Positions 616-62,664 of a DNA stretch of 64,000 nt are shown piece after piece. Source of the stretch: Minisyncoccota bacterium (GTDB lineage Bacteria; Patescibacteriota; Minisyncoccia; UBA6257; 2-01-FULL-56-20); NCBI GenBank assembly GCA_035541435.1, contig DATKNL010000002.1, positions 67,962-131,961 on the forward strand, in the 5' to 3' direction. The position numbers and the translations under genes were made by a program. How positions within the stretch are numbered: position 1 is the stretch's first letter; the number at the start of each line of letters is the position of its first letter. Under the pieces are notes generated by a model. That model was not told the DNA's origin. It worked only from the letters and a program-made list of their open reading frames with translations, and made no database searches.

Positions 616-1319
616 GAGCCCTGGGCGATCACGACCGTCTGAACCTTGTTGATGTCATAGGGAAAGACGAGGGTGGCCTCGGTGAAGAGGCTGTCGGCCG
701 ACGTGCTCGTCGCGCTCACCTGCCCGACCGGCAGGCCATAGGGCATGCCCGGCCCGGCGGCATAGACGATGCTGCCCGCCGCCACGCCCGCCGTGCGCGC
801 GATCGAGCCGATCTTCGGATAGGACCCTCCTTCGAACAGGCCGTCATAGCTCGAGGTCCCCACGCGCACCGGCATCGTGAAGCCGCTGTCGAAGATCGTC
901 TCGGCGAGCGATTCGTGCGCGAAGACCTGGGCGATGCGGCCGATGAGCATCCCCTGGAACAGCACGGCCGTGCCGGTCGTCACGCCGTGGTCCGCACCCG
1001 CATCGAGCAGGAGCTCGTTTTTGAAATTGAGCGGATAGCGGGAATAGACCATCGCGCGGAGCATCCGCGGCGACGCCTGCGGCAGCTGCTCCTCGACGGT
1101 CTGATAGATGGCGACCTGCGCCTCGAGCGCCTCGTTCTGCGCCTCGAGGTTCGGGGCCAGGGCGTCACCGGGCGCCGCGGACGACGCCTCGCCCACCCCG
1201 CTTCCGGGCGTAAGCCACTGGCGGATGCGCCAGCCATAGGACGGCGCGAAGAAAATCCCGCCGGCAAGAAGCACGAGCAGGACGCCGAGGATCCAACGAT
1301 GGGACCGCCGATAGGTCAT
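612..1319 (-). CDS. mreC: Rod shape-determining protein MreC
   Basis: N-terminal TM, coiled-coil (LEAQNEALEAQVAIYQ), C-terminal beta-rich region typical of MreC. Immediately downstream of mreB. Confidence 0.75.
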   Translation of the reverse strand: MTYRRSHRWILGVLLVLLAGGIFFAPSYGWRIRQWLTPGSGVGEASSAAPGDALAPNLEAQNEALEAQVAIYQTVEEQLPQASPRMLRAMVYSRYPLNFKNELLLDAGADHGVTTGTAVLFQGMLIGRIAQVFAHESLAETIFDSGFTMPVRVGTSSYDGLFEGGSYPKIGSIARTAGVAAGSIVYAAGPGMPYGLPVGQVSATSTSADSLFTEATLVFPYDINKVQTVVIAQGS

Positions 1320-1340
1320 GAAAAAGGCTGCGATGAGAAG

Positions 1341-2384
1341 TTACAGGTTGATCGAGAGCGGCTTCAGCGGGTTGTCGAGCAGCTCGCGATGGCCCTCGAG
1401 GTTGTCGACGATCTGTCCCAGGCCGCGCACGACGCAGGTGAGCGGATCGTCGGCCACGTGCACGGTGACGCCCGTCTCCTTCTCGAGCAGCTCGTCGAGG
1501 CCGCGCAGCAGCGCGCCGCCGCCGCAGAGCACGATGCCCTGCCGCAGCACGTCGCCCGCGAGCTCCGGCGGCGTCTCTTCGATCACCTCGCGCACCGAGT
1601 CGATGATCGCGCGGAGCGACTTCGAGAGCGCCATGCGCACGTGGTTGTTGCGCAGCGCGATCTCGTTCGGCAGGCCGGTGCCGAGGTCGCGGCCGCGGAT
1701 CGGCACCTCCATCCGCTCGTCGAGCGGGATGGCCGATCCGACCGCGATCTTCGCGAATTCCGCCGTCGGCTCGCCGATCGCCAGGTGGAACTCGTCGCGC
1801 ACGAACCGCATGACGTCCTCGTTGAAGCGGTCGCCCGCGACCTTCAGGGTGCGCGAGACGACGGTGCCGCCCATCGAGATGACGGCGATGTCGGTCGTCC
1901 CGCCGCCGATGTCGATGATGAGGCTCGCCGACGGCAGCGAGATCGGCAGGCCCGAGCCGAGGGCCGCTGCGGTGGGCGACTCGACGAGATAGACCTTCGA
2001 GACGCCGGCGTTCAGGGTCGCGTCCTCGACGGACTTGCGCTCGACCTCGGTCAGGTTGTTCGGAATGGCGAGGATCGCGCGGCGGTACGAGACCATCGAG
2101 CTCGCCTTCGGGCGGCTGAGCAGGTGCCGCAGCATCTCTTCGGTCATCTCAAAGTCGGAAATCACGCCGTTCACGAGCGGGCGCACGACGTTGATGTGCG
2201 GCGGCACCCGGCCGAGCATCTTCTTCGCGTCGTCGCCAACCGCGAGCACGTGGTTCGTCTTGGTGTTCACGGCCGCGACCGATGGCTCGTTCACCATGAT
2301 CCCCCGCCCCTTCACATAGATGAGCGAGTTGGCCGTGCCGAGGTCGATGCCGATGTCTTTGAAAACCGAATCGAAGAGTCCCAT
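1341..2384 (-). CDS. mreB: Rod shape-determining actin homologue MreB
   Basis: 347 aa. DLGTANSLIYV, ILAIPNNLTEVERK and DIGGGTTDIAV actin-fold phosphate/adenosine motifs. Confidence 0.95.
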   Translation of the reverse strand: MGLFDSVFKDIGIDLGTANSLIYVKGRGIMVNEPSVAAVNTKTNHVLAVGDDAKKMLGRVPPHINVVRPLVNGVISDFEMTEEMLRHLLSRPKASSMVSYRRAILAIPNNLTEVERKSVEDATLNAGVSKVYLVESPTAAALGSGLPISLPSASLIIDIGGGTTDIAVISMGGTVVSRTLKVAGDRFNEDVMRFVRDEFHLAIGEPTAEFAKIAVGSAIPLDERMEVPIRGRDLGTGLPNEIALRNNHVRMALSKSLRAIIDSVREVIEETPPELAGDVLRQGIVLCGGGALLRGLDELLEKETGVTVHVADDPLTCVVRGLGQIVDNLEGHRELLDNPLKPLSINL

Positions 2385-2406
2385 CCGATTTCGTAAATGA
2401 TTGCGT

Positions 2407-3630
2407 TTATTTGATAAGCTTGACGGCCTCGTCGAGCGGGACGACCTTCGCGTCCTTCTCGCCGCGCCGCCTGACTTCCACCGCGCCGTCCCCGACCTTC
2501 GGGCTCGTGACGATGCGCCACGGAATGCCGATCAGGTCCGCTTCGGCGAATTTTTCGCCCGCAGATGCCGCCCTATCGTCATAGAGTACATCAATGCCCT
2601 TGCTCCGTAAAGATTCATAGATGCCGTCGCCGTCCGCGCCGTTCAGGGCGAGCAGGTGCGCGTCGAACGGGGCGACCGATGCCGGCCACAGTATACCATG
2701 GTCATCGTGAAAAAGCTCGACGATCGTGCCCATGAGGCGCGTGACGCCGATGCCGTAGGAGCCCATGACCACATAGTCGCGCTCCCCCGCCTCGTTCGTG
2801 AATGTGAGGTCGAACGCCTTCGCATATTTCGTGCCAAGCGGGAAGATGTTGCCCACTTCGACCGCCTTCTTCGCGTGCACGACGCCGCCGCACTTCGGGC
2901 ACGCCGCGCCGTCGTGCAGCTTCGAGATCTCCTGGTTCTCGGCATAGTCGCACGTGCCGCAGACGAAGATGGTGTCCTCCCCCACGTCGCAGGCGACCTG
3001 GAACTCGTGCGTGTTGCTCACCGTGAATTCGCCGCCGGCGGCGAGGGTGTAATAGGCCTTCACGCCGCAGCGCGCGAACACCTTCTTATAGGCCTCGGCC
3101 ACGCGGGCGTAATAGTCGAACAGGTCCTTTTCGTTCGCGTGGAAGCTGTAGAGGTCCTTCATCAGGAACTCCCGCCCGCGCAGCAGGCCCGACTTCGCGC
3201 GCGGCTCGTGCCGGAACTTGGTCTGGATCTGATAGGCCGCGAACGGCAGGTCCTTATAGGAGCTCACGTAATGCGACGCGATCTCGCTCATCACCTCCTC
3301 GTGCGTCCAGCTGATGTTGAAGTTCGGCTCCTTCTCGTCGCCCGCCGTCACCTTATAGACGACGTCGACGTCCCACCGTCCGGTCGCCGTGAGGTATTTC
3401 TTCTCGTGGAGCGCCGACATGAGCATCTCCTCGCCGTCCACCGCGTCCATCTCCTCGCGGATGATGTTCGATATCCTGCGGATGACGCGCCACCCGAGCG
3501 GCAGCAGGGAATAGACGCCGGCCGAGTTCTTATAGACGAATCCCGCGCGGGTGAGCAGCTGGGCGTTCAACGCCACCTCGTCCTTCGGGGCCGACCGCTC
3601 GGTTTTCGTGAAAAGCTTCGATTGGCGCAT
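2407..3630 (-). CDS. proS: Prolyl-tRNA synthetase (short ~407-aa form with Zn-ribbon insertion, no bacterial INS editing domain)
   Basis: Class II aaRS motifs (FRHEPRAKSGLLRGREF, GSYGIGVTR), C-terminal anticodon-binding domain. Start reassigned to ATG at 3630 (MRQSKLFTKTERSAPKDE); the ORF-track N-terminal extension is not protein-like. Confidence 0.9.
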   Translation of the reverse strand: MRQSKLFTKTERSAPKDEVALNAQLLTRAGFVYKNSAGVYSLLPLGWRVIRRISNIIREEMDAVDGEEMLMSALHEKKYLTATGRWDVDVVYKVTAGDEKEPNFNISWTHEEVMSEIASHYVSSYKDLPFAAYQIQTKFRHEPRAKSGLLRGREFLMKDLYSFHANEKDLFDYYARVAEAYKKVFARCGVKAYYTLAAGGEFTVSNTHEFQVACDVGEDTIFVCGTCDYAENQEISKLHDGAACPKCGGVVHAKKAVEVGNIFPLGTKYAKAFDLTFTNEAGERDYVVMGSYGIGVTRLMGTIVELFHDDHGILWPASVAPFDAHLLALNGADGDGIYESLRSKGIDVLYDDRAASAGEKFAEADLIGIPWRIVTSPKVGDGAVEVRRRGEKDAKVVPLDEAVKLIK

Positions 3631-3758
3631 CGCGTGAGGGGTTGGAATTTCCCTAAGCGTAGCACGAAAGGAATGCGCGTGCCACACGCGCGGCGCGGCC
3701 CAATCCACAGCCCCGTTTCGCGGGGCGCGCGCCCGCGTGCTACAATACGGGCATTCCA

Positions 3759-8940: not shown

Positions 8941-10779
8941 ATGTTTTACATCATGGTGTCGCTCGTGAGCGCGTTCGTCGGGGCTCTTCCTTTGCTTTTC
9001 AAACGGAAGATCAATGCCGCGATCGTGCAGGGTCTGATTACCGCGATCGTTGGATACTGCCTCATTTACCTCCTGGCTCCTTCGACGGCATATCCGCTGC
9101 TCGGGGCGCCTGGACTGCTGACGGTAATCTGGTGGGTCTTCGCCGCCGTCATAGATGGCTCGCAGGAGAACGAAGTCACCGCTCTTGTCGTAGTCCCGAT
9201 CTTCGGGATCATCCTTTATGCGGTCGTCGGCTTGTCCGGATGGGAAGCGTTTCGCGCAAGCGATTACGCCAACATGATGGGCTCGGTGGACGTGCGCGAA
9301 TGGACGCAGGATGTTCAACCCAAGGATCCTGCCCATATGCGCATGAGCACGAAAGAGAATGCCCTCTATCAGGCGAAGAAGGTCATGGGAAAGGATGGAG
9401 CCATCGGCAGCCAGTTCGAGATCAGCGAAGACAACATGACGCTCCAGATGATCCGCGGGGAACTCTGGTACGTCGTTCCACTGGATTATTCCGGGTTCGG
9501 CGTATGGATGAACTCTCGGGGAGTCCCGGGATACATCAAGGTTCATGCCGAGGATCCCCATCGGGAACCTGAGCTCGTAATACTGAAAGATGACGAGCTT
9601 ATGCACTACACGCCGGGTGCCTACTTTGGCAACGACTTAGAGCGGCACCTCCGGAATCGTGGCTATCTCAACAAGCTGCTTTCCGATTGGACCTTCGAGG
9701 TCGATGAGGACGGGCATGACTGGTGGGTGGTCACGGTTTCCGAACCGACCATCGCATGGTGGGGTGAGCGCGTTTCCGGCGTCGCGATCGTGAATCCGTC
9801 TACCGGCGATGACACGTTCTATCCGCTCGGGAAAGTTCCCGATTGGGTGGACCGAGTCATTCCTCAGCATATCGTGAAAGATTACCTTGCATGGCAAGGC
9901 GACCTGTCCGGAGGCTGGTGGAACAGCTGGTGGGGAGCCGTAAACCTCACGGAACCCGAGACGCCGAATCTCATCTATGGTTCCGGCGATCAGCCCGAAT
10001 GGGTGACCGGCATCACGTCTTCGAACGGCAAAGATGACTCGCTCGTGGCGTTGGTGTATACCAATTCACGAACCGGGAAATCTGTCCGTTATGTGATGAA
10101 GGGCGGAGGCACCGATACGGCCATCCTTGATGCCGTGAACAAGAACAGCCAGGTTCAGTTCAAGCACCTGCATGGCGTGGCGCCGCAGATCTACAACGTG
10201 TATGGTCAGCCGACGAGCGTCATCCCGTTGTTCAACGAAAGCCATTCGTACCAAGGCGTCGCCATGGTTCCCATCAACGACATCCAAACGGTGGCGGTGG
10301 GTGGCGACCAATATGAGGCGCTCCGTTCGTACGAACAGCTCCTCTCCGAGGCGGGCCAGCGCGTCGCGTTGGACAAAGAGCGCACCCTGCAAACCATCGA
10401 GGGGGTCGTCGACCGCTTTAGCGCGGAGGTTACGAGCAGCGGAGGTACGGTCTATTACCTTCACCTCCCTGGCATTTCGTGCCTCTTTACTGCCGGCGCC
10501 GGCGCATCAGCGAAGCTGCCGGTAACGAAAGAGGGCGATAAGGTGAAGATCGAGTTCTATGCATCGGACCGCGATGTGGTCCCGATCCATGGGTTCGATA
10601 ATCTTTCCCTTGTCCTCTCGGCCAGCAAAGTACAACAGCAGGTTCGCGCCGAAGTGAAGGAACGGCAAGGCACTCAGGAAGTTCGATCCGATACGCAGAC
10701 CGTCGTGAACCGGATCCAACAAATGTCGCCCGAGGATTTGCAAAAGCTGAAATCGCAAGTCCCTCCTCAGTCGCAGTGA
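8941..10779 (+). CDS. Hypothetical membrane-anchored extracytoplasmic protein (612 aa)
   Basis: Strong RBS. Three N-terminal TM helices then a large Trp-rich soluble domain. No recognizable catalytic motifs. Confidence 0.6.
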   Translation: MFYIMVSLVSAFVGALPLLFKRKINAAIVQGLITAIVGYCLIYLLAPSTAYPLLGAPGLLTVIWWVFAAVIDGSQENEVTALVVVPIFGIILYAVVGLSGWEAFRASDYANMMGSVDVREWTQDVQPKDPAHMRMSTKENALYQAKKVMGKDGAIGSQFEISEDNMTLQMIRGELWYVVPLDYSGFGVWMNSRGVPGYIKVHAEDPHREPELVILKDDELMHYTPGAYFGNDLERHLRNRGYLNKLLSDWTFEVDEDGHDWWVVTVSEPTIAWWGERVSGVAIVNPSTGDDTFYPLGKVPDWVDRVIPQHIVKDYLAWQGDLSGGWWNSWWGAVNLTEPETPNLIYGSGDQPEWVTGITSSNGKDDSLVALVYTNSRTGKSVRYVMKGGGTDTAILDAVNKNSQVQFKHLHGVAPQIYNVYGQPTSVIPLFNESHSYQGVAMVPINDIQTVAVGGDQYEALRSYEQLLSEAGQRVALDKERTLQTIEGVVDRFSAEVTSSGGTVYYLHLPGISCLFTAGAGASAKLPVTKEGDKVKIEFYASDRDVVPIHGFDNLSLVLSASKVQQQVRAEVKERQGTQEVRSDTQTVVNRIQQMSPEDLQKLKSQVPPQSQ

Positions 10780-10979
10780 TTGAATTCAACCCTCGGCCCG
10801 CCATGCACCAACCAGTGCGATGCGGGCTGATTTTTTTGTCTCGAAAATTTGCAGTCCCAAGGGGAATCGCCCCGCGGCTCACGCGCTCGCCGTCGCTCGC
10901 GCGTGGCCTGGGCACCGCCTCACGGATTTTCTCTGCTGAGAAAATCCGCTCCGGCGGTCCGATTCCTCTTTGAGAAAAC

Positions 10980-11098
10980 CGACAAAACAAAACATGCCTC
11001 GGTAAGGGCTCTCGGAGGCGCGATGAGCGCCGAGAGCTGAGGCGCGCATCCAGCAGGACGCGACGCCGCACCTTACCGAGGCATGTTTTGCTTTGTCA
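10980..11098. repeat. Long inverted repeat (27-bp arms, 1 mismatch, ~63-nt loop) abutting the tRNA-Glu 3' end
   Basis: GACAAAACAAAACATGCCTCGGTAAGG at 10980-11006 vs its reverse complement at 11072-11098. A second perfect 10-bp hairpin lies at 10923-10946. Confidence 0.6.
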
Positions 11099-11099
11099 G

Positions 11100-11171
11100 T
11101 AGCCCCAAGGGGAATCGAACCCCTATTTGCGCCGTGAAAGGGCGCCGTCCTAGCCATTAGACGATGAGGCC
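11100..11171 (-). tRNA. tRNA-Glu (anticodon UUC)
   Basis: Manual fold of the reverse complement: acceptor GGCCUCA/UGGGGCU with two G-U pairs, anticodon stem-loop with CUUUCAC loop giving UUC, T-arm GGGG-UUCGAUU-CCCC. No encoded CCA. Confidence 0.85.
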
Positions 11172-12826: not shown

Positions 12827-12860
12827 AGGACCTGAAACGCGCCCGTCGTCGCAGCGTCAA

Positions 12861-14348
12861 TTAGTACGACGTGGGAACCCACTGGTCGATGCGGTTGTTC
12901 GTGTAATCGGCGACGTAGAGATTCCCGTTCGACGAGAACCCGATGCCGAAGGGATTCTGGAACTGGCCGTTCCCGGAACCGACCGAGCCGAACGATGTGC
13001 TATAGACGAAGGTGCCGCCGCTCGGAACCCATTTGTCCACGCGGTTGTTCGAAGCCTGGGCGATATACAGGTTGCCGCCCGAGTCGAAGGCGATGCCCAG
13101 GGGATCGCTCAGGAAGCCGTTCCCCGATCCGCTCGAGCCGAACGACAGGCTATAGGCATAGGTCGCCCCGCTCGGGGTCCACTTGTCGATGCGGTTGTTG
13201 TTCGAGTCGCTCACGTACATGTTGCCGCCGCCGTCGAAGGCGATGTAGGCCGGGCCGCTGAACTGGCCGTCGCCCGAACCGCCGGAGCCCGTCGACGTGC
13301 TATAGACGAAGGTGCCGCCGCTCGGGGTCCACTTCTCGATGCGGTTGTTCGACATGTCGGCGACATACATGTTGCCGCCATAGAACGCGATCCCCACGGG
13401 ATCGTTGAACTGGCCGTCGCCTGAGCCGAGCGACCCGGTCGACGTGCTATAGACGAACGTGGTGCTGCTCGGCACCCACTTCTCAAGGCGGTTGTTGAAC
13501 GAATCGGCGATCCACAGGTTGCCGCTGCCGTCGAAGGCGAGGCCCTGCGGATGGCTGAACTGGCCCGCGCCGGCGCCGCCGGAGCCGAATGGCGTGCTCG
13601 AGACGAACGCGCCGCCGCTCGGCACCCACTTGTCGATGCGGTTGTTCGAATAGTCGGCGATATAGATGTTGCCGCTGCCGTCGAAGGCGAGCGCGTCGGG
13701 ATGGCCGAACTGGCCGTTGCCGGCGCCGGACGTCCCGAAGGACGTCCCGAAAAGGTATGACGGCCGGCCGGGGCTCGTGAGCTGGATGTCGCCCACCTCA
13801 TAGGCCTTCGTGTCGCTGCCGCCGTCGTTCGCGGCGAGCGGCGTGTATTTCTGCGACTCGAGATAGCTTGAGACCTTCCATCCGTTGCCGTTCGTCACAT
13901 AGACGTAATAGTCGCCGGACGAGGTCGTGTTCACCGGGTCGATGGGCAGCTTCGACAGGGGCGAGCCGGCGTTCATCTTGGTGAAGTCGATCGGGACCCA
14001 TCCCGTGCCGTCCACCTTATACACCGAAGCCGAGGCGGCGCAGTGATAGGCCCCGCCTGCCGGGAACCCAAGCCCCGAGCAGTCCGTTCCCGCCGAGCTC
14101 GTCGCGGTCGGATCGATAAGCGACAGATAATAGACGTAGGGCGTGCCGTAGCCGCCTGCGAGATTCTCGTTGTTCGCGATGCCGACCGCGTTGTTGATCG
14201 TGCTGAGGTCCGAAACGCGGGTCGCGTCGCGCGCCTGCTGCAGGGTGATCTGCGGGTTGATCACATAAATAACAACCACCGCGATCACCGCGATGACGCC
14301 GATCACAATGAGAAGCTCTATGAGGGTAAATCCGGCCTTCCTACTCAT
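12861..14348 (-). CDS. Type-IV-pilin-like protein (prepilin N-terminal methylation/TM segment) fused to an NHL-repeat beta-propeller
   Basis: N-terminus GFTLIELLIVIGVIAVIAVV (class III signal). C-terminal half has ~6 repeats of the ...GQF..P.G.A.D..GN.Y.AD..NNRI.KW... NHL signature. Confidence 0.8.
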   Translation of the reverse strand: MSRKAGFTLIELLIVIGVIAVIAVVVIYVINPQITLQQARDATRVSDLSTINNAVGIANNENLAGGYGTPYVYYLSLIDPTATSSAGTDCSGLGFPAGGAYHCAASASVYKVDGTGWVPIDFTKMNAGSPLSKLPIDPVNTTSSGDYYVYVTNGNGWKVSSYLESQKYTPLAANDGGSDTKAYEVGDIQLTSPGRPSYLFGTSFGTSGAGNGQFGHPDALAFDGSGNIYIADYSNNRIDKWVPSGGAFVSSTPFGSGGAGAGQFSHPQGLAFDGSGNLWIADSFNNRLEKWVPSSTTFVYSTSTGSLGSGDGQFNDPVGIAFYGGNMYVADMSNNRIEKWTPSGGTFVYSTSTGSGGSGDGQFSGPAYIAFDGGGNMYVSDSNNNRIDKWTPSGATYAYSLSFGSSGSGNGFLSDPLGIAFDSGGNLYIAQASNNRVDKWVPSGGTFVYSTSFGSVGSGNGQFQNPFGIGFSSNGNLYVADYTNNRIDQWVPTSY

Positions 14349-14403
14349 AGGAGTAGTTTAGCAGAAACGGTTTGCGCGCCCTGGGTAGAACCTCGTCGGC
14401 CCG

Positions 14404-15903
14404 CTAAAAGCCTGTCGGAACCCACTTGTTCACGCGATAGGCCATCTGCCGGTCGGATATGAGGATATTCCCGCTCGCGTCGAAGGCGATGCCCCATGGA
14501 TAGGTGAACTGCCCGGTGCTCGTTCCCGCCGAGCCGAACGAGGTGCTATAGGTGAAGACGCCCGAATTCGGGAACCATTTGTCGATCCGCTTGTTGCCGG
14601 CGTCGGCGACATAGAGGTTGCCACCGGCATCGAACGCGAGCCCGATGGGGTTCTGCATCTGCGCGCTGCCCGAGCCGAGCGATCCGAAGGACGTGCTATA
14701 GGCATAGGTACCGCCACTCGGGACCCACTTCTCGACGCGGTTGTTGGCTGAATCCGAGATATAAAGGTTGCCGCTGCCGTCGATCGCGATGCCGGTCGGG
14801 CCGTTCACCTGCCCTGGTCCCGAGCCGAGCGATCCGAAGGACGTGCTATAGGCATAGGTCGTGCCGCTCGGCGTCCATTTCTGGATGACGCTGTTCAGGT
14901 AGTCGTTCACGTAAAGGTTGCCGCTGCCGTCGAAGACGAAGCTGAACGGGTCGTTGAACTGGCCAGGGCCGGACCCACCGGTGCCGAACGACGTGACGTA
15001 GGCGTAGGTCGTGCCGCTCGGCGCCCACTGCTGGATCCGCTTGTTGTTGATGTCGCCGATGAGCAGGTTGCCGCTGCCGTCGATCAGGATGCTCGTCGGG
15101 CCGTTGAACTGTCCCGCTCCGGAGCCGCCCGAGCCGAACGTGGTGAAATAGGTATAGGTCGTGCCGCTCGGGACCCACTTCTCGATGCGGTTGTTCAGGA
15201 AGTCCGCGACGAGGACGTTGCCGCTCGCATCGACCGCGACGCCGGTCGGGCCGTTGAACTGGCCCGCGCCCGCGCCGTTCGTTCCGAAGCTCGTGCCGTA
15301 CGTGAACGCGACCCGTCCGGGGCTCGAAAGCTGGATGGCGCCCACCTCATAGGCCTTCGGATCGGTGCCGCCGTCGCTCGCGGCCAAGGGGCCGTACTTC
15401 TGCGAGTCAAGATAGGTGGACAGCTTCCATCCGTTGCCGTTCGTCACATAGACGTAATAGTCGCCTGACGAGGTCGTGTTTACCGGATCGACGGGCAGCT
15501 TCGAGATCGGCGCGCCGGAGCTCATCTTGGTGAAGTTGATCGGTATCCATCCCGTGCCGTCGATATTATAGAGGGACGACGACGCGGCGCAGTGATATGA
15601 GCCGCCGGCGGGAAAGCCGAGGGCTGAGCAGTCGGTTCCTGCCGAGCTCGTGGCGGTCTTGTCGATGAGCGAAAGATAATAGACGTACGGCGTGCCATAG
15701 CCGCCCGGAAGGCTCTCGTTGTTCGCGATGCCGACAACGTTGTTGATCGTGCTGAGGTCGGAAACGCGGGTCGCATCCCGCGACTGCTGGAGCGTCGCCT
15801 GAGGATTGATCACGTAGATCACCACCACGGCGATGACCGCGATCACGGCGATCACGATAAGAAGTTCGATCAGGGTGAATCCGCCAGCCTTATTCAGTTT
15901 CAT
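14404..15903 (-). CDS. Type-IV-pilin-like NHL-repeat beta-propeller protein (tandem paralog)
   Basis: Start moved to ATG 15903 (MKLNKAGGFTLIELLIVIAVIAV). First ~200 aa ~85% identical to neighbour 12861-14348; NHL blades more divergent. Confidence 0.8.
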   Translation of the reverse strand: MKLNKAGGFTLIELLIVIAVIAVIAVVVIYVINPQATLQQSRDATRVSDLSTINNVVGIANNESLPGGYGTPYVYYLSLIDKTATSSAGTDCSALGFPAGGSYHCAASSSLYNIDGTGWIPINFTKMSSGAPISKLPVDPVNTTSSGDYYVYVTNGNGWKLSTYLDSQKYGPLAASDGGTDPKAYEVGAIQLSSPGRVAFTYGTSFGTNGAGAGQFNGPTGVAVDASGNVLVADFLNNRIEKWVPSGTTYTYFTTFGSGGSGAGQFNGPTSILIDGSGNLLIGDINNKRIQQWAPSGTTYAYVTSFGTGGSGPGQFNDPFSFVFDGSGNLYVNDYLNSVIQKWTPSGTTYAYSTSFGSLGSGPGQVNGPTGIAIDGSGNLYISDSANNRVEKWVPSGGTYAYSTSFGSLGSGSAQMQNPIGLAFDAGGNLYVADAGNKRIDKWFPNSGVFTYSTSFGSAGTSTGQFTYPWGIAFDASGNILISDRQMAYRVNKWVPTGF

Positions 15904-21985: not shown

Positions 21986-22056
21986 CGGGCCGTAGTATAC
22001 CGGTAGTACGAGCGCATGGGGTGCGTTTAGACCGGGTTCGATTCCCGGCGGCCCGA
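21986..22056 (+). tRNA. tRNA-Pro (anticodon GGG)
   Basis: Manual fold: acceptor CGGGCCG/CGGCCCG, anticodon loop AUGGGGU giving GGG, T-arm CCGGG-UUCGAUU-CCCGG, discriminator A. No encoded CCA. Confidence 0.8.
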
Positions 22057-22081
22057 CTCAAATAAAACAGCTCTTGAACGA

Positions 22082-22121
22082 GAATCGAACGAGCGGAGGG
22101 GTCGGGGAACCGCGGCCGGTT
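22082..22121 (+). repeat. tRNA-adjacent ~40-nt repeat, copy 1 (GAATCGAACGAGCGGAGGGGTCGGGGAACCGCGGCCGGTT)
   Basis: Near-identical (one extra G) to 58875-58915 downstream of tRNA-Gly. Begins 26 nt after the tRNA-Pro 3' end. Confidence 0.55.
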
Positions 22122-23049
22122 GCTGCTTCTGCGTCGCTTTTCGCGTATAATGAATCGCATGGATCCCATGACCGCAACCTATGTCGACCGGGCTCAGAAT
22201 GAGCTCACCGAGCACCTTGTCTATGGCAAGCTCGCCGCGCGCGAGAAGAACCCGCACAACCGCGCGCTCCTCGAACGGCTTTCGGCCTCCGAAAAGACGC
22301 ACTATGAGTTTTGGAAGACGCTCGCTCCCGAAGCCGAGCACGTGAAGCCGCGCAAAACGGGCCTCATCGGCATCCCCCTTTTGCGCTCGGCGCTCGGCAT
22401 CACCTTCGTCACGAAATTCCTCGAGGGCCACGAACGGGATGCGATCTCGACCTATCGCGAGATGCTGAAGACGATCGCCCCCGAGCACCGTCAGCGGCTC
22501 GAGGCGATCATCAAGGACGAGGAATCGCACGAGCAGGGGCTGCTCACCCAGCTCCAGGAGCGCCGCATCGCCTATATCGGCTTCATTGCGCTCGGCCTGT
22601 CGGACGCGATCGTCGAGATCACCGGCGTCCATGCCGGCTTCCTCGGCGTCACCGGCTCCACGCTCATCGCGGGCGTTTCGGGCATCATCGTCGGCTTCGC
22701 CGCCGCGATATCGATGGGATCGGCCGCCTATATCCAGGCCAAGCAGGATCCCGACAAATCCCCGGTCCCGTCCGCCCTATCCACCGGCCTCACCTATCTC
22801 GGATCGGTCATCATGCTCGCCCTCCCCTATTTCCTCATCCGCACCATGGTCGTGGCCTTCGTCATCTCGACGGGCATCGGCGTCCTGCTGCTCGCCGGGT
22901 TCATCTTCTTCAGCGCCGTGGTCTTCGACAAGCAGTTCTTCCGCGAGTTCGGCGAGTCGGTGGGTCTCATGCTCGGAACCGCCCTTGCGACCTACGTCCT
23001 CGGCACCGTCGTCGGATCGGTCTTCCACCTCAATCAGGCAAGCTTCTAA
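22120..23049 (+). CDS. Ferritin-like (rubrerythrin-type) domain fused to a VIT1/CCC1-family iron/manganese transporter domain
   Basis: N-terminal four-helix ferritin-like region (EKTHYEFW...EESHEQ), C-terminal polytopic VIT1-like region. True start probably an internal ATG (22150/22159/22168), since a TATAAT sits at 22145-22150. Confidence 0.7.
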   Translation: MLLLRRFSRIMNRMDPMTATYVDRAQNELTEHLVYGKLAAREKNPHNRALLERLSASEKTHYEFWKTLAPEAEHVKPRKTGLIGIPLLRSALGITFVTKFLEGHERDAISTYREMLKTIAPEHRQRLEAIIKDEESHEQGLLTQLQERRIAYIGFIALGLSDAIVEITGVHAGFLGVTGSTLIAGVSGIIVGFAAAISMGSAAYIQAKQDPDKSPVPSALSTGLTYLGSVIMLALPYFLIRTMVVAFVISTGIGVLLLAGFIFFSAVVFDKQFFREFGESVGLMLGTALATYVLGTVVGSVFHLNQASF

Positions 23050-55514: not shown

Positions 55515-58412
55515 TTACGGAAGCGGCGGAACCGCGAGGTTGAGCGCCGGGCACTCGATCAGGTTGATCCACCGCTGGGTCGTCTTATAGACGTAGTCCG
55601 TCGGTGTGAATTCCGTCTCGAGGCCGTAGGGCAGCCAGGGGCGAAGCACCTCGATGTGGTACTTCACCTGGAACTGGTCGACGGCTGCGATCGTGTCCGA
55701 ACCGTAATACCCGGTGACCGGAAGGCCGATGCCGAGGTTCTGGTTCAGGAAGAGTTGCAGCTTGCGGACTTCGGCGGGATCGTTCAGATCCTTGCGGATC
55801 GGATGGATGTACTGCGTGAGATAGATGCCGCAGCTTTCGCCGAGGACCTGGCCGGTCGTACTCGTGCTCGTGCCGAGCACCTGTCCGCCGCCACCGCCAC
55901 CGCCGTTGCCGCCGCCTCCACCTCCGCCTCCGCCACCTCCGCCGCCGGTGCCGCCCGCGACCGTGATGGTCGAGGACGCCGTGTTGTTGCCGACGTTCGG
56001 GTCAAGGACCCTGTTCGATTCGCCGACATGCGCGACGTTCGTGATCGCCTGTCCCGCGGTCCCCTGGTTGACCGTCGCCGTGATGACGAGGGTCACCTGG
56101 TGGCCGCTCGCGAGGTCGCCGATCGCCCACGCGCCCGTCGAGGTCGCGTACGTCCCCTGCGACGTGGTCGCCGAGACGAGCGTGAGCCCCGCGGGAAGCG
56201 TGTCGGTCGCGACTGCGCCGAACGATTCCGAAGGACCGAGGCCGGACACGGTCACCGTATAATGGATCGTCGATCCCTCATTCGGTGTCGCGTTGTCCAC
56301 GGATTTCGCGATGCCGATTTCGGCCGTGGGGATTCCTCCCCCGCCGCCACCGCCACCGCCTCCCCCGCCGCCGCCTCCACCACCGCCACCTCCGCCTCCG
56401 CCGCCATTCGTCTGAATGACGATCGAAACCGACGAGGTGTTGTTGCTCATGTTGGCGTCGGTCGAGCTGGACGACTCGCCGATCGTGGCGACGTTCGTGA
56501 TCGTCTGTCCCGCCGTCCCGGCATTGACCGTCGCCGTGATGACGAGGGTCGCCGTCGCGTTCGCGGGCATGTCGCCCACGACCCACGCGCCCGTCGAGGT
56601 CGCGTACGTCCCCTGCGACGTGGTCGCCGAGACGAACGTGAGCCCTGCGGGAAGCGTGTCGGTCGCGACGACCCCGGTCGAGGTCGCGGGACCGAGCGCC
56701 GAAGCGGCGAGCGTGAAGTTCACGGTGTCGCCCTCTTTCGGATTGCCGTTGTCGACGGTCTTCATGATCGCGATGTCGGCAGTCGTGGTCGGCGTTCCGC
56801 CGCCACCCCCGCCGCCCCCGCCACCGCCGCCGTTATTCGACTGCACGGCGAGGGTCGCGCTTGCGCTGTCGTTCGCGCCGTTCGAATCGTGCACGCCCGA
56901 GCCCTGCGAGACGGTCGCGGTGTTCACGATCGTCTGGCCCGCCGTCCCCGACGCCACGGTAGCCGTGATCGTGAGGGTGAGGCTGGAGCTCGGCGTGAGC
57001 GTCCCGATCGTCCAGAGGCCGGTCGAGCTCGCGAACGAGCCGCCGGTCGCGCTGGCCGAGACGAAGTCGAGCCCTGCGGGGAGCGTGTCGCTTGCGACGA
57101 CGCCCGGCGCGTTGCTCGGACCCGCGTTCGAGACGGTCACCGCGTAATGCACGGTGTCGCCCTCCTTCGGGTTCGCGTTGTCGACGGACTTCGCCACCGC
57201 GAGGTCGTCGGTCTGCTGGCCGACGGCCGGGTTCACGCTGATCGTCACGCTCGCGCTATCGTTGCCGATCGTCGCGGTGTTCGTGATCTGCATGCCCGAC
57301 TCGTTTCCGTTGATCTTCGCCGTGATGACGAGGTCGGCCGTCGCGCCCGAGGCGATGTCGCCGATCGTCCACGCGCCCGTCGAGGAGGCATAGCTGCCTT
57401 CCGACGAGCTGGCGCTGACGAACGTGAGGCCCGCGGGCATGACGTCGGTTGCCACGACGCTTGTCGCGTCGACGGCAGCCGTGTCGGTCACCGTGACCGT
57501 GTAATGGATCACGTCGCCCGCGAACGGGGTGCCGTTGTCGACGGTCTTCGTGAGCGTGAAGCTCGGCGTGGTCGAGGTCGACGTTCCGCCGCCCCCGCCT
57601 CCGCCGTTGCCGCCGCTCCCCGATCCGCAGCCTGCGCTCGCGGAGCCGGAGCCGCTCGAGCTTGCGCTCGAACTGGCGCTCGAACCCGTTCCCGACGACG
57701 AGCTGGTGCTCGTCGTGTTCGAGCTCGATGAGCTCGACGCGGTACTGGTGCACGAACCCGAGCCGGAGCTCGAGGACGACGAGGACGATCCGGAACCGGA
57801 ACCCGATCCCGAACCTGAGCTCGTCGAGCTCGAATTGCCGCCGTTGCCCGTCGTTCCCGTCGTGCTGCCCGAACCCGAACCGCTTGACGCGGTCGAGCTT
57901 GCGCTCGAACCCGAGGTTGAACCCGAGGACGAGGAGCTCGACGCGTTGCCATCCGTTCCGGACGCGCTTGCGGTGCTCGAGCTGTTCCCCGAAGCCGACC
58001 CGGAGGTCGTGCTCGAGGCGCTGCCGTTTCCGGCTGAGCTCGAGGTGCTCGAGGAATTCGAGGCGCTCGCGGTGCCCGACGTCGATGACGCCGATGTGCC
58101 GCTCGGGCCCGAAGAGCTCGACGCGGTGCTCGAAGCGCTCGCGCTCGAACTCGAACCGGAGCTCGAGCTTGAGGACGAGGTGGAACTCGTGTTCCCGCCC
58201 GTGCCCGAACTCGATGCCGCGCTCGAACCGTTATCCGATGTCAAGCTCGTCGCCGAACCCGCCACGGTCTGGCTCACAGCCTGGTCCGTAACGCCTGCCG
58301 CGCGCGCGACTGAAAGGTGACCGGCAACGGTGACTGCGGCGAACGCCCCCATGAGGAAGACTCCCTCGATGACGGCGATGCCGATAAGCAATTTCTTTAT
58401 TGCCTGTATCAT
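55515..58412 (-). CDS. Large secreted cell-surface protein: signal peptide, ~260-aa Ser/Thr/Gly-rich low-complexity region, 4x DUF11 repeats separated by poly-Gly linkers, C-terminal peptidoglycan-binding-like domain
   Basis: DUF11 signature repeated four times (TVDNG.P..GD...Y...V...GP....V.A.D.LPAGL.FVSA..S.G.YA.STG.W.IG....). Gly runs of 12-25 residues encoded by GGN/CCN DNA tracts. C-terminus VRKLQLFLNQNLGIGLPVTGYYGSDTIAAVDQFQ resembles PG_binding_1. Confidence 0.8.
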   Translation of the reverse strand: MIQAIKKLLIGIAVIEGVFLMGAFAAVTVAGHLSVARAAGVTDQAVSQTVAGSATSLTSDNGSSAASSSGTGGNTSSTSSSSSSSGSSSSASASSTASSSSGPSGTSASSTSGTASASNSSSTSSSAGNGSASSTTSGSASGNSSSTASASGTDGNASSSSSSGSTSGSSASSTASSGSGSGSTTGTTGNGGNSSSTSSGSGSGSGSGSSSSSSSSGSGSCTSTASSSSSSNTTSTSSSSGTGSSASSSASSSGSGSASAGCGSGSGGNGGGGGGGTSTSTTPSFTLTKTVDNGTPFAGDVIHYTVTVTDTAAVDATSVVATDVMPAGLTFVSASSSEGSYASSTGAWTIGDIASGATADLVITAKINGNESGMQITNTATIGNDSASVTISVNPAVGQQTDDLAVAKSVDNANPKEGDTVHYAVTVSNAGPSNAPGVVASDTLPAGLDFVSASATGGSFASSTGLWTIGTLTPSSSLTLTITATVASGTAGQTIVNTATVSQGSGVHDSNGANDSASATLAVQSNNGGGGGGGGGGGGTPTTTADIAIMKTVDNGNPKEGDTVNFTLAASALGPATSTGVVATDTLPAGLTFVSATTSQGTYATSTGAWVVGDMPANATATLVITATVNAGTAGQTITNVATIGESSSSTDANMSNNTSSVSIVIQTNGGGGGGGGGGGGGGGGGGGGGGGGIPTAEIGIAKSVDNATPNEGSTIHYTVTVSGLGPSESFGAVATDTLPAGLTLVSATTSQGTYATSTGAWAIGDLASGHQVTLVITATVNQGTAGQAITNVAHVGESNRVLDPNVGNNTASSTITVAGGTGGGGGGGGGGGGGNGGGGGGGQVLGTSTSTTGQVLGESCGIYLTQYIHPIRKDLNDPAEVRKLQLFLNQNLGIGLPVTGYYGSDTIAAVDQFQVKYHIEVLRPWLPYGLETEFTPTDYVYKTTQRWINLIECPALNLAVPPLP

Positions 58413-58743: not shown

Positions 58744-58814
58744 GCGGGTATGGTTCAGTGGCAGAACGCGACCTTCCCAAGGTTGAGATACGGGTTCGAT
58801 TCCCGTTACCCGCT
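58744..58814 (+). tRNA. tRNA-Gly (anticodon CCC)
   Basis: Manual fold: acceptor GCGGGUA/UACCCGC, D-arm GUUC-AGUGGCA-GAAC, anticodon loop UUCCCAA giving CCC, T-arm ACGGG-UUCGAUU-CCCGU, discriminator U. Confidence 0.85.
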
Positions 58815-58825
58815 CATATAAAAAA

Positions 58826-58856
58826 GAGGAACCTCGGAAAGAGGTTCCTCTTTTTT
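58826..58856 (+). terminator. Rho-independent terminator after tRNA-Gly
   Basis: Perfect 10-bp stem GAGGAACCTC/GAGGTTCCTC, GGAAA loop, TTTTTT. Confidence 0.8.
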
Positions 58857-58874
58857 ATATTCAGTTGGCGACGG

Positions 58875-58915
58875 GAATCGAACGAGCGGAGGGGGTCGGG
58901 GAACCGCGGCCGGTT
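58875..58915 (+). repeat. tRNA-adjacent ~40-nt repeat, copy 2 (contains perfect GGGGAACCG-CGGC-CGGTTCCCC hairpin)
   Basis: GAATCGAACGAGCGGAGGGGGTCGGGGAACCGCGGCCGGTT matches 22082-22121 apart from one extra G. Confidence 0.55.
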
Positions 58916-59031
58916 CCCCGTGTCGGAGGGCCGCCGTCTTCGGCGGCAGTGCGGCACCGAGGGTGCCGCAGGCGCAGCGAGGCCGGAGGCCGAGCGAGCA
59001 GTGAGATTCCCGCCGCATCGCTTGACCGACC

Positions 59032-59060
59032 AACGGTCAGATACTATGATATTCGCGGCA
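59032..59060 (+). promoter_or_regulatory. Promoter TTGACC-N17-TATGAT for gene 59078
   Basis: Hexamers at 17-bp spacing, 17 nt upstream of a GGAGGA-ATG start. Confidence 0.4.
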
Positions 59061-59077
59061 TTGCGGGAGGATATCGC

Positions 59078-59431
59078 ATGTATCATTGGATGATCGTCTG
59101 CCTGGGGGTATCCAATATCTCTCTCGATCACGCGATGCGAGAGTCCCTTATGGCCGCAGTGGAAGAAATGGCATTATCTTCCAAAACCCAACACTCTTTC
59201 AAAAGCGATACGGGAGAAGGCCAGGTCCGCAAGGTGAGCGACTTCGTATCATTCTTCGGCGAAGGCGGCCCGTGCTTCGCGGCTGAAGTCGACACTGATC
59301 GCGGGACCGGAAAAGCATCCTTCATCGTGCCCCAACGATATATCGACGCTGTTGCTGCGGGAGCTAAGTTCGATGGCGGGTTTTCGCTCGAACTTGATCC
59401 CAAGCAATCCAGACGGGCACAGTGGAATTAA
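59078..59431 (+). CDS. Hypothetical protein (117 aa) at the edge of the lower-GC island
   Basis: Start reassigned to ATG 59078 with GGAGGA RBS. The ORF-track N-terminal extension overlaps the repeat/hairpin region and is Arg/Gly-rich noise. Confidence 0.45.
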   Translation: MYHWMIVCLGVSNISLDHAMRESLMAAVEEMALSSKTQHSFKSDTGEGQVRKVSDFVSFFGEGGPCFAAEVDTDRGTGKASFIVPQRYIDAVAAGAKFDGGFSLELDPKQSRRAQWN

Positions 59432-59526
59432 CAGAATCGTTTTCCGGACGAGATCGTGACGGGAATCTTCCAATAAGCCGCGACGGAGATGTCGCGGCTT
59501 TTTTTATCAAAAGCGCCGATCCGACA

Positions 59527-62556: not shown

Positions 62557-62664
62557 GTTGAACTTATCTTAGGCCATCCTTGGTGATTTTCCAAAACTCC
62601 GGCTTCGAAGGCCGCGGCGTGATCAAATTAAAAGCACCTCCCCTTGGGAAGGTGCTTCGTCCGT

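Follow-up and report, generated by a model that had tools for sequence, protein, structure and literature searches.

A repeat shared by two tRNA loci of a Minisyncoccota bacterium is part of a gene-less element family that may insert at tRNA gene 3' ends

The repeat and the tRNA genes of the window

The stretch of DNA analysed here (the window) comprises 64,000 nt of a Minisyncoccota bacterium contig. ARAGORN identifies three tRNA genes in it: a tRNA-Pro(ggg) at 21986..22057 on the forward strand (Rfam tRNA, 50.7 bits), a tRNA-Gly(ccc) at 58744..58815 on the forward strand (also found with the Rfam tRNA model) and a tRNA-Glu(ttc) at 11099..11171 on the reverse strand. The initial annotation described a conserved element of about 40 nt behind the first two of these genes, and this repeat is real. 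Two words from it, GAATCGAACGAGCGGAGGGG (at 22082 and 58875) and GTCGGGGAACCGCGGCCGGTT (at 22101 and 58895), have exactly two exact occurrences each in the window, all on the forward strand, where shuffled sequence gives an expectation of 0.00-0.01. Between 22078-22121 (copy 1) and 58871-58915 (copy 2) 44 of 45 nt are identical, with one extra G and one A/G difference, and the likeness breaks off sharply at either edge. Copy 1 starts about 21-25 nt past the tRNA-Pro; at copy 2 the tRNA-Gly is followed by a 20-bp perfect hairpin and then by the repeat. The perfect hairpin claimed for copy 2 (GGGGAACCG/CGGTTCCCC) is complete there, at 58898-58906 / 58911-58919, and is cut off in copy 1. It was also correctly noted that the repeat contains the reverse complement of a T-loop, GAATCGAAC, and at copy 2 the T-arm of the neighbouring tRNA-Gly is matched by 13 nt of complementary sequence (ACGGGAATCGAAC to GTTCGATTCCCGT; inverted repeat I23). 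The 40-mer is not free-standing: it is the tRNA-proximal module (junction J1/2 and hairpin P2) of a multi-hairpin element of ~110-140 nt.

The complete copy behind tRNA-Gly

Copy 2 is a complete element of the kind referred to here as type A, occupying 58870..59014 on the forward strand and delimited by covariance model, fold and covariation. It scores 148 bits against the covariance model (E=4.5e-35) and its predicted fold has a free energy of -88.3 kcal/mol (z=-3.7). The closing stem P1 (58870-58879/59005-59014) is followed by tandem G.A and then AC/GU, and the remainder of the element consists of J1/2 (58884-58897), P2, J2/3 (58920-58929), P3 (58930-58936/58941-58947), P4 (58951-58958/58962-58969) and P5 (58977-58995), all on the forward strand. 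The 20-bp perfect palindrome that separates the element from the tRNA (58816..58860, arranged as A6-stem-loop-stem-T6) looks from its sequence like a bidirectional intrinsic terminator; a consensus terminator scan did not flag it. This palindrome is the centre of a longer imperfect one (I23, 58794-58825 / 58852-58883) that extends from the tRNA T-loop to the 5' end of the element. Within the latter lies X' (58862..58879, forward strand), recognised by sequence match and by its folds as a degenerate tRNA 3' end in inverted orientation. Its reverse complement, GATTCCCGTCGCCAAC, agrees with the 3' end of the tRNA-Gly in 14 of 20 positions, and the final 10 nt of X' (GACGGGAATC) form the 5' strand of P1. 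At the right junction (59005..59022, forward strand) sequence comparison shows GATTCC followed by CGCCGCATCGCT, which resembles a tRNA 3' end (T-stem 3' strand, acceptor 3' strand and discriminator) that is not that of the tRNA-Gly. Most other loci have at this point an exact direct repeat of the 3' end of their adjacent tRNA. The DNA to the right of copy 2 has a GC content of 45-53% as against about 63%.

The fold is supported by comparison of family members. Paired cells make up 93% of the alignment as against 86% in shuffles, pairs are changed on both sides in 10 cases and the observed covariation score was reached by none of 500 shuffles. Changes are compensatory in six of the nine pairs of P4, and P1 covaries too. 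Of the 10 positions of the terminal inverted repeats, 8 agree between GGAATCGAAC and the reverse complement of GTGAGATTCC, and covarying flanks extend the match. The single-stranded junctions are conserved and purine-rich, and tandem G.A motifs beside P1 and in P5 are conserved solely on the tRNA-sense strand. The minimum free energy is lower on that strand in 10 of 11 members, the strands being equal within 0.1 kcal/mol in L002, and for copy 2 it is the antisense strand that has the better z-score. There are hardly any G.U pairs (9 in sense and 10 in antisense of about 500 cells), and this systematic count is uninformative as a means of choosing the strand by G.U versus A.C pairs. The sense strand is favoured only by the conserved tandem G.A motifs.

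Copy 1 and the empty tRNA-Pro sites

Copy 1 (22078..22121, forward strand) is a truncated fossil, recognised by sequence alignment and scoring only 19 bits against the covariance model. It retains the 5' strand of P1, J1/2 and P2 as far as CCGGTT and has lost the closing CCCC of P2, P3-P5 and the 3' strand of P1. Synteny and a three-way alignment place it in a lineage-specific insertion of ~87 nt (22058..22144, forward strand) between the tRNA-Pro and the TATAAT/ATG of a VIT1 gene. In five relatives with the same gene order (L021, L024, L025, L026 and L027), in which the VIT1 protein is 66-80% identical to that of the window, the tRNA-Pro and the VIT1 gene are 0-30 nt apart and the insertion is absent; the same junction is empty in these relatives and holds a fossil in the window. 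In a covariance-model search of 234 kb no copy was found in ~98 kb of related Paceibacterota DNA with four unoccupied tRNA-Pro genes. The extra DNA at the tRNA-Pro of the window opens with TCAAATAAAACAG, which is like the left terminator arm of the full tRNA-Pro copy in L008, and this likeness suggests that the terminator may have come in with the insert. Copy 1 is best explained as a member that has lost the centre of its terminator and its distal two thirds, and copy 2 as an intact member of the same family. Alignment of the tail of copy 1 with L008 is at most suggestive of a decayed tRNA-Pro repeat, and we do not claim one.

A family of elements at tRNA gene 3' ends

Exact-word scans (19/20-mer) of public genomes and metagenomes gave 2 true genome matches and 15 metagenome matches. 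Because every type-A locus came to light by way of an exact 19/20-mer, the sample is biased; L003 and L016 were chance 19/20-mer matches and were discarded. Over 234 kb the covariance model identified 17 distinct type-A loci, with weak matches to two divergent relatives, one in L011 (a permuted core) and one in L024 (the type-B element discussed below). Those of the 17 that could be placed taxonomically belong to the Patescibacteria. Twelve of the 17 have a tRNA on the same strand at a distance of 25-170 nt upstream (four Pro, three Arg, two Gly, two Glu and one Met), and a thirteenth, L002, lies behind an apparent tRNA 3' end after a near-threshold group I intron match and carries two tRNA-end remnants in succession. 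The proposal of a tRNA-derived repeat family is right to the extent that the family is associated with tRNA genes and has tRNA-derived ends; in these scans the motif was found almost exclusively directly 3' of tRNA genes. The orientation of the element relative to the tRNA is fixed, L006 being the sole exception.

The core occurs with at least five tRNA species. Near-identical cores accompany different tRNAs in L008 (Pro) and L011 (Gly) and again in copy 2 of the window (Gly), L005 (Met) and L007 (Pro), and the 45-nt segment is invariant across genomes whose flanking GC content differs strongly. A circularly permuted relative is found behind a tRNA-His in L011. The left flank of the element ends in a variable RGG. 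In the fossils (copy 1, L001, L006, L012 and L018) it is always the tRNA-proximal side that is retained.

The 3' end of the tRNA recurs on both sides of the element, before it as a degenerate inverted copy and after it as a direct repeat that runs from the T-loop/T-stem boundary to about the discriminator base. In five loci the sequence past ...GTGAGATT is that of the adjacent tRNA from position 60/61 to discriminator +1, with repeat lengths of 15 nt in L005, 16 in L011, 18 in L015, 24 in L019 (where the repeat runs 7 nt beyond the tRNA) and 13 in L008. With L024 included, these tRNA-end direct repeats span 13-24 nt and start at position 57/60/61; the right segment of copy 2 and of L007 is not the end of the adjacent tRNA. 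The tRNA T-loop reads GACT in L005 and L011 and GATA in L024, and the right copy reads GATT anyway, which fixes the junction at 60|61. In L015 and L010 a terminator palindrome of its own comes after the right-hand copy of the tRNA end, which fits a displaced original gene end. In five independent loci the direct repeats enclose only the terminator and the core, about 190 bp without an ORF. The flanks of the two inverted repeats are inverted complements rather than direct repeats, the direct repeat lying outside the terminator.

These observations bear on the suggestion that the 40-mer is a shared attachment core of an integrative element. Integration does appear to be involved, given that the copy-1 site is empty in five syntenic relatives. 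The 40-mer is not itself the attachment core; what resembles att is the duplicated tRNA 3' end, which occurs as direct repeats within the tRNA and past the element. The element may have a role as a processing or regulatory RNA.

The third tRNA of the window and a type-B relative

Directly 3' of the tRNA-Glu, in a position equivalent to that of the hairpin behind the tRNA-Gly, there is a palindrome at 10978..11100 on the reverse strand (inverted repeat I6) with 30-bp arms (11100-11071 / 11007-10978) around a 63-nt centre. Both arms show compensatory changes in the orthologous locus L024. Beyond it lies a divergent relative of the element, termed type B (aagaGGAATCGGACC...GCGAGCGACGGCGAGCGCGTGAG...GATTCC; 10851..10970, reverse strand), recognised by a direct-repeat match with 1 mismatch; after it comes CCTTGGGACTGC, a direct repeat of the tRNA-Glu 3' end that has decayed. 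Each of the three tRNAs in the window has a member behind it, two of type A and one of type B. The core of the type-B orthologue in L024 is about 95% identical, and in both the window and L024 the right repeat tracks the substitutions of the tRNA in its own lineage. The presence of a type-B element at an orthologous tRNA-Glu site, with compensatory changes, in genomes whose VIT1 proteins are only 72% identical looks like the result of long-term functional selection or of repeated re-insertion rather than of neutral mobile DNA. L028 represents the sequence of the window from another sample and contributes no further tRNA.

Searches for genes, RNA families and carriers

With Rfam 15 at gathering thresholds the whole window yields the three tRNAs and nothing else, and only noise was returned when E-values of up to 10 were allowed near the two copies and of up to 1 near the type-B element. 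None of the known RNA families considered (including twister, hammerhead, HDV-like, HEARO, T-box, tmRNA and ROOL/GOLLD) matches. A minus-strand tRNA, tmRNA or pseudo-tRNA was also rejected: ARAGORN reports nothing, the spacing from the T-loop-like motif to the end is wrong and a T-stem is absent. Four scans of viral contigs for the exact motif found no copy, and a blastn search with the complete copy 2 had no match among phage and plasmid records; a phage or plasmid origin was rejected on that basis.

Integrase genes were suggested in the initial annotation as something to look for near other copies. No integrase or transposase is consistently found next to the copies, and an autonomous parent element was not found in the loci examined. 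Neither copy in the window has an integrase beside it: Pfam searches with 10 ORFs from the low-GC stretches (37-41 and 59-64 kb) detected no integrase or recombinase, only a PPDK-like enzyme, TspO and DinB, and no recombinase adjoins the copies in the window, L008 or L011. In L001 the gene of a large serine recombinase lies outside the element, 1.3 kb rightward of the truncated copy. Genes for TnpB, IscB, Cas12k or Tn7-like proteins were not seen near any copy, nor were ORFs of tnpA/tnpB size or corresponding Pfam matches. A separated right end of a larger element was looked for in L001, L017 and L020 and none was found.

Interpretation

We favour, with a probability of roughly 0.55, the view that the 40-mer represents the invariant module shared by a family of non-autonomous mobile elements that have no genes and insert at tRNA gene 3' ends in Paceibacterota (Patescibacteria/CPR). 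An occupied site consists of an intact tRNA, a terminator-like palindrome, X', the folded core P1-P5, GATT and X, where X is a direct copy of tRNA positions about 61-74 and X' repeats the tRNA 3' end in inverted and decaying form. A small non-autonomous unit made up of a replacement tRNA 3' end, a terminator, X' and the core would recombine with the tRNA gene at the T-loop/T-stem boundary, in such a way that the gene would remain functional and its old 3' end would be displaced to the right of the element and decay. The core would probably be a folded single strand of tRNA sense, either RNA or single-stranded DNA, which would be recognised or needed by a moving machinery that we infer to be supplied in trans. 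Several findings sit awkwardly with such an account. No integrase or transposase accompanies the copies consistently and no autonomous parent was found; X varies with the tRNA species and the core is identical, which does not suit a tyrosine integrase with a fixed core site; an identity of 14 nt is insufficient for ordinary homologous recombination; and neither standard integration nor standard transposition explains the inverted copy X'. In addition, the right segment mismatches the adjacent tRNA end in copy 2 and L007, and the type-B element has been maintained with compensatory changes at an orthologous tRNA-Glu site. A bolder and rather unlikely version of this account is that of a new class of mobile element, a gene-less unit of ~200 nt inserting at the T-loop/T-stem boundary, with a conserved multi-helix core that would be either a folded ssDNA site or an RNA active as ribozyme or guide. 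Such a unit would rebuild the 3' end of the tRNA gene together with its terminator, possibly by way of a small circular intermediate, as suggested by the rod-like arrangement of X-terminator-X' and core and by the permuted relative behind tRNA-His in L011.

Most weight among the alternatives, even though it too is unlikely, is given to a functional structured RNA of tRNA sense made by read-through of the terminator, the presence of which behind many tRNAs would be selected, with mobility absent or of secondary importance; it might, for example, be a ribozyme (self-cleaving or processing) or a tRNA-minihelix mimic acting on tRNA 3' ends. The invariance of the 45-nt segment despite strongly differing flanking GC, the strong covariation, the purine-rich conserved junctions and the tandem G.A motifs that make sense on the sense strand only are all as would be expected of such an RNA, as are the presence of a member behind each of the three tRNAs of the window, the permuted version behind tRNA-His in L011 (compare the junction-type ribozymes hammerhead and twister) and the type-B element, with its place at an orthologous tRNA-Glu site, the compensatory changes in its core stems and in a hairpin of 25-30 bp and the co-variation of its right repeat with the tRNA. 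Against this, a strong terminator-like hairpin separates the tRNA from the element, space for a conserved promoter is lacking, the element is absent at tRNA-Pro in five relatives, truncated fossils are numerous, the helices are nearly devoid of G.U pairs (9 sense and 10 antisense of about 500 cells) and Rfam finds no match even at E-values up to 10.

It is improbable that the elements are leftover att-side arms of large integrative elements or prophages, since deleted or replaced, with the 40-mer as part of a conserved arm that binds an integrase or accessory factor. T-loop-type tRNA attachment sites reportedly have a repeat from the T-loop end to the tRNA end, and the direct repeats described here show that pattern; the low GC content to the right of copy 2 (45-53% versus about 63%), the large serine recombinase gene near the truncated copy in L001 (1.3 kb away, on its right) and the two successive tRNA-end remnants in L002 would also fit. 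However, the enclosure of just the terminator and core, ~190 bp, in five independent loci would not arise repeatedly by random deletion of kb-sized elements, the covariation of P4 preserves pairing and not sequence, which speaks against a double-stranded protein-binding site, and neither a copy in viral contigs, phage and plasmid records nor a Pfam recombinase among the ORFs of the low-GC stretches was found. Very improbable is a guide-RNA-like unit, by analogy with TnpB omega-RNAs and the homing crRNA of type V-K CRISPR-associated transposons, in which the core would be a scaffold and the tRNA-matching 3' segment would direct homing by a trans-encoded RNA-guided nuclease or transposase. A structured scaffold is indeed directly followed by 14-24 nt identical to the tRNA 3' end, this segment co-evolves with the tRNA in the lineages of the window and L024 and a T-rich T-loop lies immediately 5' of the matching tRNA site, but no TnpB, IscB, Cas12k or Tn7-like gene was seen near any copy, the supposed guide is partly sequestered in P1 and mismatches the adjacent tRNA in copy 2 and L007, the intact adjacent tRNA would be a target too, and transposon ends and a short fixed target duplication are absent. 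The idea that the repeat is a shared promoter or operator of downstream genes, in effect a duplicated promoter element, is effectively refuted by the varied downstream contexts: there is a sigma-70-like promoter just downstream of copy 2 (59022-59050) and a TATAAT downstream of copy 1, but these promoter-like sites lie outside the repeat at differing spacing, the downstream genes are unrelated among loci and the orientation of the element follows the upstream tRNA and not the downstream gene.

Comparison with known systems

The tRNA attachment sites of integrative elements fall into sublocation classes that include the T-loop. Like the tyrosine-integrase islands and prophages of the T-loop class, the elements described here target a tRNA gene, with a repeat that begins at the T-loop end and stops at, or a few nt past, the gene's 3' end. 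In both cases the inserted DNA supplies a new 3' end, the gene stays intact, the displaced end decays and successive remnants can stack, as in L002. Occupied and empty sites are found here too, and tRNA-3' direct repeats occur in six loci, copy 2 and L007 being without them. In contrast to such integrative elements the inserted unit is only ~190-330 bp and contains no integrase or any other gene, and it has an extra inverted copy of the tRNA end, a multi-hairpin core and an association with at least five tRNA species.

Bacterial MITEs and small repeats (Correia, RUP, BOX, REP/BIME and Nezha) are likewise gene-less, multi-copy, strongly folded and ~100-200 nt long. The present family shares with them imperfect terminal inverted repeats (10 nt), truncated fossils and presence/absence among relatives, and it is non-coding, small and found in several copies (three members in the window). 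Unlike MITEs, it has no fixed-length target duplication beside the inverted repeats, no transposase-bearing IS relative was found and it shows strict specificity for tRNA 3' ends, flanks that depend on the tRNA species and an orientation that is fixed except in L006.

With folded single-strand sites such as integron attC, the attP hairpin of CTX phage and the end hairpins of IS200/IS605, the elements have in common that pairing is conserved over sequence in some stems, that G.U pairs are few and that conserved non-Watson-Crick features lie on one strand. The T-loop-like ends GTTCGAT/ATCGAAC are one mismatch from the integron core sites GTTRRRY/RYYYAAC. The differences are that no IntI, Xer-type context or Y1 transposase is associated and that the structure is multi-branched rather than a single imperfect hairpin and has its place beside tRNA genes, not at dif or in cassette arrays. 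In particular, membership of attC is contradicted by this multi-branched form, by the occurrence of single sites behind tRNAs and by the lack of a visible intI context, and membership of the IS200/IS605 or TnpB omega-RNA systems by the tRNA-end duplication, the variable RGG of the left flank and the failure to find tnpA/tnpB; those systems insert 3' of a fixed target of 4-5 nt and do not duplicate it. Casposons are mostly archaeal and insert at tRNA gene 3' ends with a duplication that is often 14-15 nt long and ends at the gene end. The target is therefore the same, but the loci described here are bacterial (CPR), they have no Cas1 or polymerase gene and no inverted repeats bounding the inserted DNA, and the duplication is 13-24 nt; they do not qualify as casposons.

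A full-text search of the literature found no description of such an element, which is weak evidence of absence. The family was previously uncatalogued and looks like a tiny mobile element specialised for tRNA genes. If so, the small, streamlined and poorly understood genomes of CPR/Patescibacteria would carry tiny tRNA-specific insertions that repair the gene they enter, and integration into tRNA genes would extend down to a unit of ~200 bp without genes, moved by a structure-recognising recombinase acting in trans or by the folded nucleic acid itself. Such insertions would leave stacked tRNA-end remnants and may mark later hotspots of foreign-DNA exchange. The family also gives rise to spurious 'tRNA fragment' and 'att site' calls in CPR metagenome-assembled genomes and to breaks in their assembly, and the invariant 45-nt module is a handy marker for locating the sites concerned.

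Extent and members of the element

The initial annotation had reported a motif of about 40 nt behind two tRNA genes of the window, and this holds in both respects. Each half of the motif occurs exactly twice in the 64 kb, on the + strand and where first reported, with practically no occurrence expected from shuffled sequence, and both ARAGORN and Rfam place a tRNA-Pro(ggg) at 21986-22057 and a tRNA-Gly(ccc) at 58744-58815, close to the two copies. The hairpin of GGGGAACCG and CGGTTCCCC that had been ascribed to copy 2 is whole in that copy only. When aligned with their flanks, 22078-22121 (copy 1, behind tRNA-Pro) and 58871-58915 (copy 2, behind tRNA-Gly) share 44 of 45 nt, the differences being one G and one A/G, and the likeness stops abruptly on both sides of this block. 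Copy 2 is preceded by a 20-bp perfect palindrome with an A-tract on one side and a T-tract on the other; this palindrome resembles an intrinsic terminator and was not flagged by a consensus terminator scan.

Searching one genome per species for the first 20-mer gave two true matches, and searching metagenomes for a 19-mer added 15. As all loci of the main core family (type A) were found through an exact 19- or 20-mer, the diversity of the family is under-sampled. Two loci, L003 and L016, were rejected as chance matches. Conservation in these loci extends far past the 40-mer, the element measuring approximately 110-140 nt in total. Its general form begins xxxGGAATC-GAAC-GAGCGGAGGGGGTC-[GGGGAACCG..CGGTTCCCC]-GTGTCGGAGG-[variable hairpin] and continues behind the variable hairpin as [stem-ACCGAGGGT-stem]-AAGCG..[GC-GA-stem-loop-stem-GA-GC]..GTGA-GATTCCxxx. 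Copy 2 is a complete member (58870-59014). Copy 1 breaks off inside hairpin P2, and the elements of four outside loci (L001, L006, L012 and L018) have other truncation points; the tRNA-proximal side is retained in every truncated copy.

A covariance model built on 11 full-length members recovered all of them at 121-175 bits and the fossils at 19-95 bits, with no match elsewhere in approximately 98 kb of related Paceibacterota DNA. No matching family was found in Rfam 15, whether gathering thresholds were applied or E-values up to 10 allowed. A blastn search of phage and plasmid records with the complete copy 2 gave no match, and exact-motif scans of viral contigs gave no occurrence.

The folded core

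Every member folds as a closing stem (P1) enclosing hairpins P2 to P5. In the alignment 93% of cells are paired, against 86% in column shuffles, and ten pairs have changed on both sides, a level of covariation reached by none of 500 shuffles and lost when partner columns were slid. Compensatory pairs make up six of nine in P4 and the outer part of P1 covaries, while P2 is invariant. Folding is good on both strands and counts of G.U pairs do not discriminate between them. Tandem G.A oppositions are, however, conserved in P1 at its inner end (GAAC facing GUGA) and in P5 (GC-GA-...-GA-GC), and are meaningful only when read on the tRNA-matching strand. For this reason the tRNA-sense strand is taken to be the one that probably folds. 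The folded form may be RNA or single-stranded DNA, the near absence of G.U pairs being compatible with DNA.

Linkage to tRNA gene ends

A tRNA gene lies on the same strand 25-170 nt upstream of the element in 12 of the 17 distinct type-A loci, the tRNAs being Pro (four), Arg (three), Gly (two), Glu (two) and Met. In a thirteenth locus, L002, the element follows the apparent 3' end of a tRNA with a near-threshold group I intron match. This match (L002 970-1183; 48.6 bits, just below the Rfam threshold of 50) sits within an apparent tRNA gene that ARAGORN did not call, and two tRNA-end remnants follow in succession downstream of the element.

Directly behind the GTGAGATT of the element there is a direct repeat of the 3' end of the neighbouring tRNA, of 15 nt in L005, 16 nt in L011, 18 nt in L015, 13 nt in L008 and 24 nt in L019, where it extends 7 nt beyond the gene. 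The repeated part comprises the 3' strands of T-stem and acceptor stem, the discriminator and about one further nucleotide. The right copy reads GATT even where the T-loop of the tRNA deviates (GACT in L005 and L011, GATA in L024), and the junction is therefore placed between T-loop and T-stem, at position 60|61. The left flank, xxxGGAATCGAAC, repeats this tRNA end in inverted orientation, exactly in T-loop and T-stem and with a degenerate and gapped acceptor part, and P1 forms by its pairing with the right copy. From the T-loop of the tRNA through the terminator to the inverted copy the sequence is a single long imperfect palindrome (inverted repeats I23 and I6).

A second, separate terminator palindrome lies behind the right-hand tRNA end in L015 and L010, an arrangement that would be expected of the original gene end after displacement. 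Copy 2 and L007 retain P1 with a right-hand segment that does not come from the end of the adjacent tRNA; one possible explanation is that copies later exchanged sequence or that the DNA on the right side was replaced. At the right junction of L009 (755-790, minus strand) 14 extra nucleotides (CTCGGCCCGCAGGG) stand between GATTCC and the tRNA-Arg repeat. Read together with the CC before them, they resemble the 3' end of another tRNA and may have been brought from an earlier site.

Related and rearranged forms

Behind the third tRNA gene of the window, tRNA-Glu (11099-11171, minus strand), there is a palindrome with 30-bp arms, the remnant of an inverted tRNA end and a divergent core, termed type B (10851-11100, minus strand), which has the GGAATCG start and the P5/GTGAG end in common with type A and is followed by GATTCC and a direct repeat, now decayed, of the 3' end of tRNA-Glu. 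The orthologous site in the syntenic relative L024 carries the same type-B element with a core approximately 95% identical, compensatory changes in both palindrome arms and in two core stems, and a right repeat that matches the tRNA substitutions of its own lineage. This points to either long-term selection or repeated re-insertion at this site.

Both core types occur together in L006 behind tRNA-Ser (1263-1350, minus strand). A type-A-like core in antisense (1126-1285, plus strand, with the adjacent 1030-1130) is placed between the tRNA-Ser terminator and an inverted tRNA-end copy; next come a type-B core in sense orientation and a repeat identical to the 3' end of tRNA-Ser. The one inverted copy is common to both cores. 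A circularly permuted type-A core, the single example, lies at 10646-10800 (plus strand) of L011 behind tRNA-His (10497-10568). Its closing stem is P2 (GGGGTGCTGC/GCAGCACCCC), inside which are J2/3, P3, P4 and part of J1/2, and its outer stem is derived from the T-loop and contains tandem G.A (fold -89.5 kcal/mol, z=-6.0).

Two further elements, at L006 230-400 (minus strand) and L010 1350-1470 (plus strand), are preceded by a common stretch of approximately 110 nt with no tRNA. This stretch looks like a small-RNA gene, having a promoter-like AAGAAAAACTTGAAAT and, close to the 3' end, a T-loop-like GGTTCGAAT/GCGTTCGGA; Rfam gave no match for it.

Insertion or functional RNA

Five relatives share the gene order ValRS, PrsW, HSP20, ..., tRNA-Pro, VIT1, PCD with the window (VIT1 identity 66-80%), and named homologs of the VIT1 protein beside copy 1 are labelled Candidatus Paceibacterota, which assigns the organism to this group. 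In these relatives the VIT1 gene starts 0-30 nt behind tRNA-Pro, which means that either the VIT1 promoter overlaps with tRNA-Pro or both genes are transcribed together; the window carries approximately 87 extra nt, copy 1 included. The short spacing lies at L021 1505-1600, L024 9929-10010 and approximately 9900-10001 in L025, L026 and L027, and in L024 the VIT1 ATG directly abuts tRNA-Pro. At its start the extra DNA resembles the left arm of the terminator that L008 has in its complete copy behind tRNA-Pro. This suggests that the terminator came with the element and that copy 1 afterwards lost the centre of the hairpin and the distal two thirds. Near-identical cores also occur behind differing tRNA species in differing genomes.

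The best supported reading is that these elements are a family of small gene-less insertions at the 3' ends of tRNA genes. An incoming element would supply a replacement tRNA 3' end with a terminator, displacing the old end, and the mobilising machinery presumably requires the conserved folded core. This machinery is encoded neither within the element nor beside it. In favour of insertion, the repeat stops at the functional end of the tRNA, as selection on an element-borne gene end would yield, and this end point is a better fit to site-specific integration than to staggered-cut duplication. Against it stand the varied tRNA-specific ends on one core, the inverted copy to the left of the core and the lack of a recombinase. 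The main rival sees the core chiefly as a functional RNA of the sense strand, tied to tRNA expression or processing. The extreme conservation of the core, its retention at an orthologous site and the permuted form speak for this rival; the terminator, the empty sites and the fossils speak against it. Both readings could hold at once.

The element resembles T-loop-type integration into tRNA genes but is without an integrase, resembles MITEs but lacks a parent IS and a target duplication of fixed length, and resembles folded single-strand recombination sites but has no cassette or dif context. A full-text search of the literature found no paper describing such an element. We rate it as a tRNA-targeting non-autonomous mobile element, with a smaller likelihood of its belonging to a new kind altogether.

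Neighbouring DNA

Directly to the right of copy 2, at 59000-62600, GC content is 45-53% against approximately 63%, and the stretch, which encodes a 117-aa protein without Pfam match and a 1009-aa PPDK_N/PEP-utilizers protein, may be foreign DNA gained at the tRNA site. Its sequence was found again in a second sample (L028). In L001 a 531-aa ORF (2144-3739), 1.3 kb from the truncated element, looks by eye like a putative large serine recombinase; this contig is binned as Acidobacteria (Ca. Angelobacter), reflecting either cross-phylum transfer or a binning error. The window also contains two long repetitive genes (12850-15500 and 55515-58412), one with a repeat period of 150 nt (families D1, D3 and D7), the other, with repeats of approximately 450 nt (D2), encoding a surface-type protein of 965 aa that has poly-Gly and poly-Ser tracts.
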